64,000 bases of DNA from Escherichia coli (lineage in GTDB: Bacteria; Pseudomonadota; Gammaproteobacteria; Enterobacterales; Enterobacteriaceae). A program made the position numbers. The stretch lies in NCBI RefSeq assembly GCF_003991155.1, contig NZ_CP031293.1; one strand, given 5' to 3'. Positions within the stretch are counted from its first letter, which is position 1. Each line of letters starts with the position of its first letter. Below are positions 42,001-48,000 of the stretch, piece after piece.

Positions 42001-45000
42001 AAACGGATACAGCCAGACTGTCGGTGCACTGCAGACAGAAACGGGAGCGCACATTCAGCTTGATAGCGGTAGTGTACTAACGGTCAGCGGCACGCAGCGT
42101 CAGCCGGGGGATGATAATGGTGGCATCATTGAAAACAATGTGCTGACCGGAGACGGTACGCTGGCTGTCACGGGCAGCAATCTGACGGTACATGGCACCA
42201 ATATCGGGTTTACCGGTAATGCCAGCCTTACCCAGGGGGCGCTGGTTGAAATGAACGGCGCACAGGGGCTGGGAAGCCAGGGCTCCATCAGCTTTGAAAG
42301 CCTTAATGATCGCCTGGCGATTGATATCGCCGACGGTAGCGGAGTCAGCAGTAACCTGAGTAAATCGCTTTCCGGAAAAGGTTCAGTGGGCATACTGAAC
42401 ACCACTGATCTGACACTTTCCGGAGATAACCGTAATTTCAGCGGTGAATTCCGTGTGCAGAAAGATGCTGCTCTGCGGGCTTCAGATGAAAAACACCTGG
42501 GCACCGGGCTGATTGACAGTGATGGTGTCACCTGGCTTACCGCCAGTGGAAACTGGTTACTGAAGAATGATATTACTGGCTCCGGCGCTCTGGTGAAACA
42601 GGGGGCGGGTAATCTGATCATTAATCATGAGCTGACTTATACCGGTGATACCACGGTTGAGAATGGCGTTCTGATTGTCGGTGATGATTCAGTCACCCGT
42701 GCCGCTGGTGCGACGTTGTCAGGCTCCAAAAACATTCATGTTCTTAATGGCGGCACACTGAGTGGGCTGGGGACCGTTTCGGGTCAGGTTAATAACCAGG
42801 GAACACTGGCATCACTAAATGCTCTCTCAGGTTATGAAACGGCAGAGGCGGGCAATTTTACCGTTGGCTCACTGACCAATACTGGCGTCATTCGTCTGGC
42901 CGGTGGTAAGACAGGAAATACCCTGACCGTAAATGGCGATTACACTGGTGGCGGTACGTTAATTATCAATACCGTGCTGGGGGATGATACTTCTGCCACT
43001 GACAAACTGATTGTCACGGGTAACACCTCCGGTGATACCGGCGTGGTGGTGAATAATGTCCGGGGCCAGGGGGCTCAGACCGCTGACGGCATTGAGATTG
43101 TGCATGTCGGTGGGCAATCTGACGGTAACTTCAGACTGCAGAACCGTGCGGTGGCAGGGGCATGGGAATATTTCCTGCATAAAGGTAATGCGGGTGGTAC
43201 TGACGGTAACTGGTATCTGCGTTCTGAATTGCCGCCAGAACCACAACCGCAGCCGCAGCCACAACCGCAGCCACAGCCACACCCACACCCCACGCCGGAT
43301 AAACCTGTACAGAAGGTCTATCGTCCGGAAGCGGGCTCTTATATTGCGAACATAGCGGCAGCCAACACGCTGTTCAACATCAGAATGCACGATCGTGAGG
43401 GGGAAACTTACTATACCGATGTGTTTACTGGTGAGAAGAAAGCAACAAGTATGTGGATGCGTCATATCGGCGGTCATAATCGCTGGAAGGACAGCAGTTC
43501 ACAGCTGAATACGCAAAGTAACCGTTATGTTGTGCAACTGGGTGGCAGCATTGCGCAATGGACTGACGGTCAGGACCGTCTGCAACTGGGGATTATGGCC
43601 GGTTATGGAAATGAGAAGAGTTCCACGACATCCTCGCTTTCGGGATATAAATCTAAAGGTGCGATCAATGGATACAGCACCGGTTTATACGGAACGTGGC
43701 AGCAGAATGACGGTAATGACAACGGGGCTTATGTCGATACCTGGATCCAGTACGGATGGTTTAATAATACCGTTAATGGTGAAAAACTGGCTGCGGAGTC
43801 CTGGAAATCCCGTGGATTTACCGGTTCAGTGGAAGCGGGTTATACCTTTAAAGCCGGCGAATTTACCGGTAGCCAGGGTAGTCACTATGACTGGTATATT
43901 CAGCCGCAGTCCCAGATCACGTGGATGAATGTAAGAGCCAGTGAGCATACGGAGAAGAATGGCACGAAAGTTCAGCTCAGCGGAGACGGTAATATCCAGA
44001 GTCGTCTGGGCGTCAGAACTTACCTGAAAGGTAAGAGTGCGTCTGATGATAATAAGGCGCATCAGTTCGAGCCATTTGTGGAAGTTAACTGGATCCATAA
44101 TACACGGAGCTGGGGTGTCAAAATGGATAATACGGCACTCAGTCAGGACGGAGCTACAAATATTGCTGAAGTCAAAACGGGTGTTCAGGGTAAATTGTCA
44201 GATAACCTGAATGTCTGGGGCAATGTTGGTGTTCAGGCTGGCGATAAAGGGTACAGTGATGCCCAGGCAATGCTGGGTATTAAATATATATTCTAATCAC
44301 ACAGTGGCAGGAGGGGACCTCCTGCCACCTCAGGGTTGTCATAATGAGTTCTGTAATGAAATTTTCTGTTGTTAATGCAGTAGTGCTGCTGTTGCTGATT
44401 GTACTTACTGGTGTTTTTTATATGAAAAAGTCAAAAGAAATTGCAGTTGTTAATATCGATGCTATTTATAATCAGTCTGCCGCCGGAGACATGGCCAGAA
44501 AACATCTGAATGAGGTTAAGAGTATTCTTGAAAAAGGATATGAGGATGCGCAAAAAGTATTCGCAGATAACGCGAATAAAGAGGCGCTGCTTCTTGATGC
44601 CAGACAAAAACTGGAACGACAATATGTTATTGAGGAAAATAGCGCAAAAATGGTGTTATCCCGTGCGATAGATAATGCTATAGGCACATGGAGAAAAGAC
44701 AATCCTAAAAATATTGCCGTATTGTCTTCAGGTGTTGTGCTTGCGCATAACGAGTCAGCTGATATCACCAAAGAAGTCATGACTCTGGTTGAAAAAGAAA
44801 ATCTGGTTTTTAATAAATTACCCAAAGTGGAAGTGCACAATAAGAATGAAGAGAAACCAGAACAAAGTAAGTAATCACTAGATTCTGACGATTTCCAGAA
44901 GGGAGATTCAGCAGGCCAGCATCTGTAATCATTCAGATTTGCTGGCTTGCTGCTAAATATGGTTGCTGAGAAAAATAGCAGGCCAGTAATTTATTCAGAT

Positions 45001-48000
45001 TACTGAATATAATAATTTTTCAGGAACGGTTATGCTGAAGGTAGTATGTTTAATCGACACAATTATTTGCTGTGTCTAATATGAGGTGACATTTTTATGA
45101 TCACTGACCAGCAAGACTGACCCGTATTGATTAGCCTGATTATTGGCAACTTATTGGGGTAGTCATTTTGACATCGAATGGGGGAGGTTTCCAGTTAAGT
45201 TCACGAATGCATGATGATTTGCGTTCACATATCGAAGTACTGGTTGACTATACTAAGGATTTTAAGATAACTCACTGATTGTAAGTGGGTTATTGCGAGG
45301 GGGATGATAAATGGTGTCCCCTGCAGGAATCGAACCTGCAATTAGCCCTTAGGAGGGGCTCGTTATATCCATTTAACTAAGAGGACAATGCCGCATGAGT
45401 ATACCCGCTAATGGACTGCGGGGTAAGTACACTGCCGCGCGATTGCTTAAACCCTCGCCATTTATGCCGGGTTTTTATCATTTTTCTTAATGTTTTCCGC
45501 ACGTTCTGCTTTTTGGCGTGCTTCTGCTTTGCGCTTGTTGCTCATGTCGTTACGAATCTGTGCATGACTCATTAACGCGAAGATAAAGGTGCCGCCGCAG
45601 ATGTTCCCCGCTAAAGTAGGTAGTGCGAAGGGCCAGATGAAATCGCTCCAGTGCAGCGTACCGTTAAACACCAGATAGAGGATTTCAACAGAACCGACAA
45701 CGATGTGAGTGGTGTCACCCAGGGCAATAAGCCAGGTCATCAATATAATCACCACAATCTTTGCCGCACCCGCTGAAGGAAACATCCATACCATAGTGGC
45801 GATCAGCCAGCCGGAAATGATCGCGTTGGCAAACATCTCGCTGGGGGTGTTCTTCATCACATCCATGCCGATTTTGACAAATGCATCGCGAGTTTCTTCA
45901 TTAAAGATAGGCATATATTCAAATGCCCACGCCGCAATACCTGTCCCGAGAATATTACCCAGCAGCACGACGCCCCATAACCGCATAAGTAAGCCAACGT
46001 TGCTCATTGTCGGTTTTTGCATGACGGGTAGTACCGCAGTCACGGTGTTTTCGGTAAATAATTGCTGGCGGGCCATAATGACGATAATAAAACCAAAGGT
46101 ATAACCGAGATTCTCCAGCAAGAAGCTGCCCGGCACACCTTCCAGTTCGACATGAAATATCCCTTTTGCCAGTAATGAAGCGCCCATCGACAGACCCGCC
46201 GCAATGGCTGACCACAGTAGTGCCATTGCGTCGCGTTCCAGCTCTTTTTCACCATCCTGGCGGATATGCTCATGAATTGCCATCGCCCGGGAGGGGAGTC
46301 GATCTTCATCTATTTCTATTTTTTTGCCGCGCTCTTTTTCTTCGCTCTCAACTTCAATTTCGTCGCTGTGTTGATCAATTTTGTCGTTGTCCATGGTCTC
46401 TTCTCTTGAATTAGCACGTATAGCTAAAGCGTAGCGGCTTTTTTGCTCGCAACTGGCGGGAGTTACTCTGAAAATGTAGAAAAGGCCGCGTTTGCCTTTT
46501 TCTGTTTCTATAGAATCAAGTAGCCTACAGGGCGGCGATTACCAGGCTATGATCAAATCAGCAAATCAGGGCGTCTGGACATCAGTTGACGTGCTGTTAC
46601 AATCGCCCACACCTAAACAGGCGGATACGGTATCGTTCCGTCATGGATGGCAAACTGCATAAGCCATAAAAAAACAGGGAGACATTTATGAAGCTTCGCC
46701 TGTCGGCGCTTGCTCTGGGAACTACGCTTCTGGTGGGGTGTGCGAGTTCCGGTACAGATCAGCAAGGGCGTTCTGACCCGTTAGAAGGGTTCAACCGCAC
46801 CATGTACAACTTCAACTTCAATGTATTAGACCCGTATATTGTTCGACCGGTCGCTGTCGCCTGGCGTGATTATGTTCCGCAACCGGCGCGTAACGGTTTG
46901 AGCAACTTTACTGGCAACCTTGAAGAACCTGCGGTGATGGTTAACTACTTCTTGCAGGGCGACCCTTATCAGGGGATGGTCCACTTTACCCGCTTTTTCC
47001 TGAACACCATTTTGGGGATGGGCGGCTTTATTGATGTTGCAGGGATGGCGAACCCGAAACTGCAACGGACTGAACCTCACCGCTTCGGTAGTACGCTTGG
47101 TCATTATGGTGTGGGTTATGGGCCATACGTTCAGTTACCGTTCTACGGTAGCTTCACGCTGCGTGATGACGGTGGTGATATGGCGGATGGTCTTTACCCG
47201 GTTCTTTCCTGGCTGACCTGGCCGATGTCTGTGGGTAAATGGACGCTTGAAGGGATAGAAACTCGTGCGCAGTTGTTGGATTCCGATGGTCTGCTGCGTC
47301 AGTCGTCCGACCCATACATTATGGTGCGCGAAGCGTACTTCCAGCGTCATGATTTCATCGCTAATGGCGGCGAACTCAAACCGCAGGAAAATCCGAACGC
47401 GCAAGCGATTCAGGATGATTTAAAAGATATCGATTCTGAATAAGAAACAAATAAAAAAGGTGAGTCACAAAACTCACCTTTTTTGTTGTTATCCCTCAAT
47501 TACCCCAAGTAAAAGAAGATAAACCGACAATGACCTGGACATAATTATGTAAAAATACTGATGTTCGTCATTGTCTGTTTCCGATATTCAGACGTTGAAA
47601 AATCAAAAAAACTGGACAATTTTAATTATCATCAAAATTAACACCCAATGCAGATAGTTGATTAATTTCATTTTGATATTTAGCCTGGCGATTTTGAAGC
47701 CTTTTTTCAACTTTATCTTCGATTTCCTTAAAGTGGTCATATTTATTTTGAGAACGGTCAACTTCGTTATCGACTAAAGTAGAAATTATTTCTTTTACAT
47801 TATCGCGTCTAAATTTTGCATCGTCCACTTGAAAATTATATCTTATTGCTCGACCTAAACGTTTAAAAACTTCGTTTGGCTCTCCCAGTCTTTCCCCGTT
47901 GAGCTCGTTTACAACCTGATGATCGGAACCTGTTGCAAATGATTCTGCCATGATAGCTTTACTGCTTTCAAACCACGCTGAAGCATTCCTGGCTTTTTCA

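Follow-up and report, generated by a model that had tools for sequence, protein, structure and literature searches.

Position and structure of the hairpin

The island at the tRNA gene argW of Escherichia coli carries a long imperfect hairpin close to its end, and the question is what this structure is and to which unit of DNA it belongs. An earlier note had placed it at the island-tRNA junction and suggested an att-site remnant, a terminator for the island operon or a small RNA. The stretch analyzed (64,000 nt of contig NZ_CP031293.1, hereafter the window) contains the argW island with the gene order ipuB, ipuA, ipuR, upaE, an ompH-like gene and argW. It is the same locus as PAI-CFT073-argW/PAI-X, the ipuA-ipuB-ipuS-ipuR-upaE island described previously (PMC6083910; reviewed in PMC7545054), and the argW-locus segment is 99.5-100% identical to CFT073, Nissle 1917 and related strains. 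The gene for the phase-variable autotransporter adhesin UpaE (upaE; 36377..44296, + strand, 2639 aa) was assigned from its open reading frame and from the RefSeq annotation of identical or near-identical loci. It is followed by an open reading frame of 176 aa, the ompH/skp-like gene (44344..44874, + strand), which is annotated as an OmpH family outer membrane protein and is the last gene before the hairpin. Its product matches Pfam OmpH with an E-value of 1e-5, but the score of 26.2 bits is below the gathering cut-off of 32.4 bits. argW itself, a tRNA-Arg(CCU) gene recognized by ARAGORN and by the Rfam tRNA model, lies on the - strand (45312..45386). The text of Battaglioli 2018 (PMC6083910) describes an invertible promoter and an operon of two genes, ipuR-upaE; no mention of the ompH-like gene, the 3' untranslated region (UTR) or the hairpin was found in the text of the published island descriptions (PMC6083910). 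Literature searches on the locus tags and on argW plus upaE returned no transcript or 3'-end data for the locus.

The main hairpin (44909..44952, + strand) begins 34 nt past the stop codon of the ompH-like gene (34-36 nt across cassette types) and about 350-360 nt from argW, and the proposed placement at the island-tRNA junction is therefore not correct. Its outer part is an inverted repeat of 13 nt, CAGCAGGCCAGCA (44909-44921) and TGCTGGCTTGCTG (44940-44952), complementary at 12/13 positions with G44914.T44947 as the single non-Watson-Crick position. The stem is extended inward by TCTG/CAGA (44922-44925/44934-44937), across a TT bulge (44938-44939). In total, the predicted fold has 17 pairs, including a sole G.U pair (44914/44947), the 2-nt bulge and an 8-nt loop, TAATCATT (44926-44933), between a 5' arm at 44909-44925 and a 3' arm at 44934-44952. 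When folded alone, the + strand RNA reaches a dG of -28.2 kcal/mol (z -5.6; 0/200 shuffles equally good), which is 3.6 kcal/mol more stable than the - strand RNA (-24.6 kcal/mol). The 13-bp stem with one G-U position described earlier was thus borne out, with a fold far beyond chance. A second, smaller hairpin, GATTTCC-AGAAG-GGAGATT (44890..44908, + strand), is predicted directly abutting the main one on its upstream side. Together they fall within a conserved 3' UTR of 78 nt (44875..44952, + strand), which is followed by a non-coding spacer of 359 nt (44953..45311) holding no annotated feature.

Distribution and genomic contexts

Among 5426 complete E. coli genomes, 248 contain the hairpin, at 253 places (median one copy per genome, maximum three). 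It is always located directly behind the ompH-like gene, and the 78-nt UTR was found at every one of these places. Downstream of the hairpin, three different contexts were observed. In context A (232 genomes) the hairpin is followed by argW, in context B (16 genomes) by a convergent CaiF/GrlA regulator within a mosaic island that has neither ipuA nor ipuB, and in context C by a GerE-type regulator on the same strand as the cassette. Context C occurs on a P1-like IncY phage-plasmid as well as on chromosomes and IMG/VR contigs. Homology between contexts A and B extends from 36131 to 44952 and breaks exactly at the last base of the hairpin. The block shared with other contexts begins either at 36131, inside ipuR, or at 36375, the start of upaE; upaE is the first gene of the conserved block, and the hairpin is its end. 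Even diverged cassettes on P1-like phage-plasmids, with 78-80% protein identity, retain the hairpin.

The earlier note had raised the question whether the segment between the ompH-like gene and argW travels with the island. The spacer is found at the argW island only, while the hairpin accompanies the cassette, also to loci other than argW. Nor is the hairpin a generic repeat at unrelated loci, being single-copy and bound to the cassette. A covariance model detected no second copy in the window or in a 49-kb mosaic island, and at the Rfam 15 gathering score only the argW tRNA passes in the window; the best Rfam match over the hairpin was snoZ185 (16.4 bits against a threshold of 50 bits, E 2.9). 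The hairpin is neither a dispersed repeat nor a member of a known RNA family. Scans of one genome per species gave no relative of the ompH-like protein in a protein-guided search and no match to a specific 24-base hairpin pattern. The cassette therefore seems, from these searches, to be restricted to a subset of E. coli/Escherichia strains and to rare cases in Salmonella, and the sample available for covariation is limited accordingly. A protein scan of viral contigs recovered the four phage-plasmid contigs already identified with the DNA pattern and no others. A metagenome scan with the 16-base loop core ATCTGTNATCANTCAGAT gave at least 120 matches; the pattern was too loose, and all were judged to be chance matches because none of those listed had complementary flanks (best 4 pairs).

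Conservation of base pairing

When the diverged types are compared over the 17 pairs, 98.8% of the cells hold standard pairs, as opposed to 22-47% in slid controls, and 27/34 positions of the arms are identical as against 19/34 in the UTR just upstream. Two pairs, 44918/44943 and 44920/44941, change on both sides (A-U to G-C and C-G to U-A), and two further pairs vary on one side only, by way of G.U. Read in the + sense, both wobble pairs are G.U, whereas a - strand RNA would have A.C mismatches at these places. In the phage-plasmid type, the helix comprises 15 contiguous pairs plus four more. The statistics that stand out are the cells paired, the double-change cells and the covariation score (4/500 shuffles each), while the number of double-change pairs was matched or exceeded by 252/500 shuffles. 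These values come from five distinct sequences with essentially one deep split, in which two compensatory events are few. Within that small sample, the hairpin behaves as a conserved structured cis-RNA whose pairs are kept by compensatory substitutions; a lack of structure conservation, which would have counted against the earlier note, was not observed. The small upstream hairpin also has a counterpart in the diverged types (CGTCT-GTTA-AGGCG), which was dropped as a second case of covariation because its register is shifted by one column between types. Of two more distant homologues, the one in Salmonella diarizonae (63% protein identity) has a hairpin of unrelated sequence at the same place (z -4.2), and the other (65% protein identity) has no significant structure past the stop codon (z +0.3).

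The island boundary

Sequence common to 5425/5426 E. coli genomes begins at 45305-45312, and the real junction between island and core is the 3' end of argW. The hairpin ends at 44952, about 350 nt off this boundary, and shares no sequence with argW. No direct argW-derived repeat was found: with up to 3 mismatches allowed, the window contains the initial 25 nt of the argW 3' end a single time. An att-site remnant of an argW-integrated element would account for the general location near the end of a tRNA-associated island, and in the GenBank phage record MG710528 the second motif copy described below is overlapped by a feature labelled 'attL'. However, the att labels of this record (AAAATAGCAGGC, TTAGCCCCGACA and GTTTTTTGTTAT) were given no weight because the three sequences are mutually unrelated. 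The att reading fails on the distance from the junction and on the missing tRNA-derived repeat, and the hairpin moreover follows the cassette to loci unrelated to argW. An independent small RNA gene would also suit a position near the island end, but the hairpin has no Rfam family, no U-tailed terminator and no evident promoter. We regard either possibility, att-site remnant or small RNA, as extremely unlikely.

Relation to transcription termination

The hairpin resembles intrinsic terminators in being a G+C-containing stem-loop that lies behind the final gene of an operon. It differs in that no U run follows the stem in any cassette type, the sequences after the stem being CTAAATATGG (context A), TTGAAACTTT (context B) and TTGAGTCCGG (context C), and in that both the stem (17 pairs) and the loop (8 nt) are longer than typical. 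A terminator scan does not call the hairpin, and with the U tract missing from every type it does not qualify as a canonical intrinsic terminator. The suggested operon terminator thus survives as a conserved 3'-terminal structure of the last gene and not as a canonical terminator. The hairpin might still act in a non-canonical way and halt RNA polymerase where the upaE/ompH-like operon ends, perhaps aided by NusA/NusG, and in the argW context it might insulate the convergent argW. It is the first strong structure past the last gene, it is stable on both strands, in contexts A and B it separates transcription units that converge, and in context A the scan found no canonical terminator on either strand of the 437-nt gap between the ompH-like gene and argW. 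Against this, apart from the U tract absent from all types, a textbook + strand terminator is found 132 nt beyond the hairpin in context B and a canonical terminator after the next gene in context C, which suggests that transcription normally passes the hairpin. Non-canonical termination is in our judgment unlikely.

Second motif copy and a probable rearrangement

The recurrence of the motif about 67 bp downstream, reported in the earlier note, is an exact repeat. AGCAGGCCAG occurs at 44910 and 44977 and ATTCAGATT at 44931 and 44993, and the copy at 44977..45001 (+ strand) consists of the 5' arm and loop of the hairpin (AGCAGGCCAG-TAATTT-ATTCAGATT) and lacks the 3' arm. In the 64-kb window, AGCAGGCCAG-N(4-14)-ATTCAGATT is found only at 44910-44939 and 44977-45001 (0/100 shuffles), and the 10-mer AGCAGGCCAG alone only at 44910 and 44977, against 0.08 expected sites. 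This second copy is limited to the argW context and is absent from contexts B and C. Between the two copies, an imperfect tandem repeat with a period of 16, TTGCTGCTAAATAT/TTGCTGAGAAAAAT (44947..44976, + strand; 79% identity), spans the break in homology with the other contexts and may reflect microhomology at the site of a rearrangement. The segment 44996-45072 can be aligned weakly to the UTR over a greater length, but this match is marginal (13/1000 shuffles) and is given no weight. The 359-nt island-specific spacer is present in exactly the same number of genomes as context A, 232, once each and always contiguous with the hairpin; the only other matches, in one record labelled as phage and one labelled as plasmid, were to this same locus. 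Beyond this locus, the E. coli, phage and plasmid collections gave no relatives that would reveal the origin of this orphan sequence, and it shows no significant resemblance to what follows the hairpin in the other cassette types. The second copy is best read as the scar of a rearrangement that joined the end of the cassette to the argW-proximal spacer.

The same observations raise the possibility that the hairpin is a DNA-level recombination signal or cassette boundary by which the adhesin block moves between islands and P1-like phage-plasmids, loosely comparable to an integron attC site or to the site of a hairpin-targeting transposase. Such a signal would explain why the breakpoint between contexts A and B coincides with the hairpin base and why half a copy lies beside it at argW, and the block is indeed found in at least three genomic settings, phage-plasmids included. 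However, neither 5' edge of the block, at 36131 in ipuR or at 36375, has a matching hairpin or repeat, and the covariance model found no partner in the window or in the mosaic island. No dedicated recombinase accompanies the block, since ipuA and ipuB are missing from context B, and the G.T positions would weaken a DNA cruciform. Selection alone also predicts a breakpoint just past the last functional element. A role in recombination is accordingly considered very unlikely.

A probable 3'-UTR stem-loop of the upaE/ompH-like operon

The hairpin is found exclusively with the cassette, is kept by compensatory change and has no U tract, and for these reasons we favor, as somewhat better than an even prospect, that it is a cassette-owned, conserved 3'-UTR stem-loop of the upaE/ompH-like operon that acts as + strand RNA and forms a barrier to exonucleases. 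Put more broadly, it is probably either an exonuclease barrier or a structure that defines the 3' end. Transcripts of the phase-variable, ipuS-driven operon would continue past the stop codon of the ompH-like gene, and their next 78 nt would fold into the two abutting hairpins. The strong second hairpin would then block 3'-to-5' exonucleases and leave a stable mature 3' end, irrespective of whether polymerase halts close by or continues to a terminator further downstream. Three elements of this model are assumed: that the ompH-like gene is co-transcribed with upaE, an assumption that is needed because the published operon names only ipuR and upaE (PMC6083910), that the hairpin coincides with an RNA 3' end, and that it stabilizes the message.

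In many E. coli mRNAs, steady-state 3' ends are marked and protected by stable stem-loops without a U tract (PMC6061677). The hairpin resembles the Rho-dependent protective 3' stem-loops of this class (Dar and Sorek 2018, PMC6061677) in being a stable stem-loop soon after the last stop codon with no U-rich stretch behind it, and its expected role, as a barrier to PNPase and RNase II, would be the same. That class has rut sites immediately downstream, whereas the + strand downstream of the hairpin is G-rich and not C-rich in all three contexts. By a crude composition test, no rut-like C-rich, G-poor + strand stretch follows the hairpin in any context, the C/G ratios in 78-nt windows being 0.36-1.0 (A), 0.38-0.83 (B) and 0.29-1.08 (C), and the Rho-dependent version of the model is weakened by this result. 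REP/BIME elements, which are dispersed in hundreds of copies, provide a second parallel, the malE-malF REP and the pap operon being examples of intercistronic or 3' stabilizer hairpins. As in these elements, a stable hairpin would shield the upstream mRNA from 3' exonucleases, and in context C it lies between two genes on the same strand; it differs from them in being single-copy and cassette-specific.

A related reading is that the 17-19-bp duplex may be a processing or protein-binding element, targeted by RNase III, bound by a ProQ-type protein or used for intercistronic processing, and would set relative expression levels for the cassette and, in context C, for the regulator gene behind it. 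In its favor, the helix has considerable length and almost no imperfections, as in the phage-plasmid type, and in context C the terminator comes only after the GerE-type gene. One study (PMC12086684) associates the binding of ProQ to mRNAs with higher levels of these mRNAs. This reading overlaps heavily with the 3'-UTR stem-loop proposed above, and as a separate explanation we find it distinctly unlikely.

As a 3'-UTR stem-loop the hairpin is biologically ordinary, and the stakes are modest. A tempting misreading is corrected, since the hairpin is neither at the island-tRNA junction nor an att scar. The annotated 3' end of a studied virulence operon of uropathogenic E. coli, ipuS-ipuR-upaE, is extended, and the ompH/skp-like gene and the structured 78-nt 3' UTR accompany upaE as a single unit, P1-like phage-plasmids included. 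Control of mRNA stability by the stem-loop, if real, would mean a post-transcriptional level of regulation for a phase-variable adhesin.

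A stem-loop downstream of the ompH-like gene

Thirty-four nucleotides past the stop codon of the ompH-like gene, the window carries a + strand hairpin (44909-44952) whose arms, 44909-44921 and 44940-44952, are complementary at 12 of 13 positions with a G.T as the sole exception, in agreement with the 13-bp stem described in the earlier note. The helix extends inward across a TT bulge (TCTG/CAGA) to give 17 pairs and an 8-nt loop, TAATCATT, and a small hairpin (44890-44908) adjoins it on the 5' side. Folded alone, the hairpin reached -28.2 kcal/mol as + strand RNA (z -5.6, 0/200 shuffles) and -24.6 kcal/mol as - strand RNA. 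The reported recurrence of a motif was likewise confirmed: the gapped AGCAGGCCAG...ATTCAGATT is present at 44910-44939 and 44977-45001, its only two sites in the 64 kb (0/100 shuffles). The second copy lacks the 3' arm; over the 5' arm and the larger part of the loop it agrees with the first at 23 of ~25 aligned bases and has a 6-nt deletion.

Compared with other Escherichia coli, the species of the window, the queried segment matches strain 2016C-3878 at 100% identity and Nissle 1917 and its relatives at 99.5%; over the hairpin segment, CFT073 and ATCC 25922 derivatives are 100% identical as well. RefSeq annotates the identical locus as dsdC, ipuB, ipuA, ipuR (a LuxR-type regulator), upaE (36377-44296), an 'OmpH family' gene (here ompH-like, 44344-44874), a 437-nt gap, argW (tRNA-Arg(CCU), 45312-45386, minus strand), yfdC and mlaA, with no feature annotated in the 437 nt between the ompH-like gene and argW. 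The island is the known PAI-CFT073-argW (PMC7545054). The invertible promoter ipuS is described as driving ipuR-upaE (PMC6083910), and text searches of that paper turned up no mention of the ompH-like gene or of anything downstream of it. Against Pfam OmpH, the ompH-like product scored 26.2 bits (E 1e-5), under the 32.4-bit gathering threshold, and its 'skp/OmpH-like' assignment by sequence is weak. Membership of the family seems confined to Escherichia and Salmonella proteins that partner giant autotransporters of the UpaE/BigA type. Within the final upaE codons, 62 nt upstream of the ompH-like start codon, a terminator-like hairpin TGATGCCCAGGCAATGCTGGGTATTA is followed by AATATATATT (44257-44282, +); it may be coincidental, or it might reduce the transcription that continues into the ompH-like gene. 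Further along, a 415-aa hypothetical gene (47622-48869, -) lies between mlaA and fadL in the window. Strain 2016C-3878 has this gene and Nissle 1917, where fadL directly follows mlaA, lacks it; the gene resembles a small insertion specific to certain strains.

The hairpin travels with an autotransporter cassette

A search of 5426 complete E. coli genomes placed the 85-nt segment containing the hairpin in 248 of them, at 253 sites, every one directly 3' of the ompH-like gene. The hairpin is part of a cassette formed by upaE, the ompH-like gene and a 78-nt 3' UTR (44875-44952), and is not a generic repeat. The 359-nt spacer between hairpin and argW is found in only 232 of the 248 genomes, in a single copy that in every case adjoins the hairpin without a break. 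In the other 16, a large mosaic island without ipuA and ipuB holds the upaE/ompH-like pair, and beyond the cassette come a convergent CaiF/GrlA-type regulator and genes of the two-partner-secretion or type VI kind; homology to the window covers 36131-44952, ending at the hairpin's final base. Some genomes carry the cassette twice or three times, and the mosaic island of E. coli MB06234 (796-845 kb) includes a second autotransporter, an EAL-domain gene, CDI/two-partner-secretion genes and type VI fragments. A third, diverged form, with an ompH-like protein 78-80% identical, is carried by the IncY P1-like phage-plasmid pAPEC201602, four IMG/VR phage-plasmid-sized contigs, the chromosome of isolate SY038 and one Escherichia sp. 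assembly, and in all instances a GerE-type regulator gene comes next on the same strand. A covariance model of the element matched these cassette instances alone, with no further copy in the window or across 100 kb of related loci. No matching family was found in Rfam, and neither protein nor DNA pattern retrieved the element among one-genome-per-species representatives.

Conservation of pairing

In the diverged form the hairpin reads CAAGCCGGTATCTG-TTATCACT-CAGATACCGGCTTG, at an unchanged distance from the stop codon. The 17 pairs were scored in an alignment of five distinct sequences, and pairing proved to be kept in the diverged forms: 98.8% of cells held standard pairs, against 22-47% when the 3' partners were slid by 1-3 columns as a control. 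Two pairs changed on both sides (44918/44943, A-U to G-C; 44920/44941, C-G to U-A), two changed on one side via G.U, and one cell, near the open end of the helix, was unpaired. The arms of the window and phage-plasmid types are identical at 27/34 positions and the UTR just upstream at 19/34. Because the five sequences represent essentially one deep split, the two compensatory events suggest, but do not overwhelmingly demonstrate, a conserved structure; 252 of 500 shuffles reached the observed number of pairs changed on both sides. The two wobbles are G.U when read on the + strand and would be A.C mismatches on the opposite one; this, together with the 3.6 kcal/mol better + fold, points to mRNA as the acting molecule and away from a DNA cruciform or an antisense RNA. 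Of two further homologues, that of Salmonella diarizonae (63% protein identity) folds a hairpin of unrelated sequence in the corresponding position (z -4.2), and none was found there in the other (L010; z +0.3). In the phage-plasmid type (L132 9245-9345, L011 545-640), an 8-bp helix, GTTCCCGG / CCGGGAAC, encloses both UTR hairpins in a three-helix junction, with an extra small hairpin beyond it; the window type lacks this closing helix.

The argW junction and the cassette breakpoint

Sequence common to 5425/5426 E. coli genomes starts at 45305-45312, the argW 3' end, and the island junction therefore lies ~350 nt from the hairpin. As the argW 3' end is not repeated in the window, and as the hairpin accompanies the cassette to loci unrelated to argW, the earlier suggestion of an att-site remnant was abandoned. 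In GenBank MG710528 (Escherichia phage GER2) the second motif copy lies under an 'attL' label, which we rejected as unreliable because the att labels of this record fall on three mutually unrelated sequences. This 'complete phage genome' contains the whole non-phage upaE island, with inconsistent attL/attR labels and upaE annotated as 'long tail fiber proximal subunit', and its lysogen sequence diverges from the window right after the argW 5' end (45386).

The hairpin could also double as a recombination boundary of a mobile adhesin cassette. The homology break falls exactly at its last base and, in the argW context, a half-copy of the hairpin adjoins the break; other than these two points the proposal has little support. 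The half-copy, that is the second motif copy, occurs in the argW context only, just beyond the point of departure from the other contexts, and an imperfect 16-nt tandem repeat, TTGCTGCTAAATAT / TTGCTGAGAAAAAT, spans the break beside it. On the simplest reading of the sequence, it would be a rearrangement scar (slippage or microhomology at the palindrome) joining the cassette end to an orphan spacer. No relatives of the 359-nt spacer were found elsewhere in E. coli, phage and plasmid collections or downstream of other cassette types. The spacer has a sigma-70-like promoter match, TCGACA-17-TAATAT (45054-45082, +), followed by GAGGTG (45083-45088) and a 7-codon ORF, ATG ATC ACT GAC CAG CAA GAC TGA (45097-45120, +), which begins ATG GTC in variant locus L146 and could be leader-type or due to chance.

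Predicted role of the hairpin in the mRNA

Of the terminator proposed in the earlier note, the canonical intrinsic type was rejected, as a U tract 3' of the stem is absent in all three types and a terminator scan did not call the hairpin; what stood is a 3'-UTR stem-loop of the upaE/ompH-like operon. Textbook + strand terminators are located 132 nt beyond the hairpin in the mosaic-island context (CCGGAGAGGA-ATGAAG-TCCTCTCTGG TTTTGTTTT) and past the next gene in the phage-plasmid context, and transcription probably passes the hairpin in both. Stable U-less stem-loops are well documented at steady-state 3' ends of E. coli mRNAs, which they shield from PNPase and RNase II (PMC6061677). The hairpin resembles them in being stable and U-less and differs from that class in that no C-rich, G-poor rut-like stretch was found downstream on the + strand in any of the three contexts. 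By this analogy, the best fit is that the hairpin would protect the upaE/ompH-like message or define its 3' end, without commitment to Rho dependence because the rut-like stretch is missing. ProQ-type binding or RNase III processing would be compatible refinements of such a protective role.

Transcription of argW is directed towards the hairpin. Because no intrinsic terminator for argW was called on the minus strand of the spacer (44953-45311), and the 437 nt separating argW from the ompH-like gene would be rut-like in composition as minus-strand RNA (C 0.24 / G 0.15), Rho may end argW read-through, for which the strong hairpin would be the first stable structure encountered.

A role as recombination boundary is the only less ordinary possibility for the hairpin. 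It is a fresh example of a familiar kind of element: a stem-loop in the 3' UTR of the upaE/ompH-like operon, specific to this cassette and conserved in structure.
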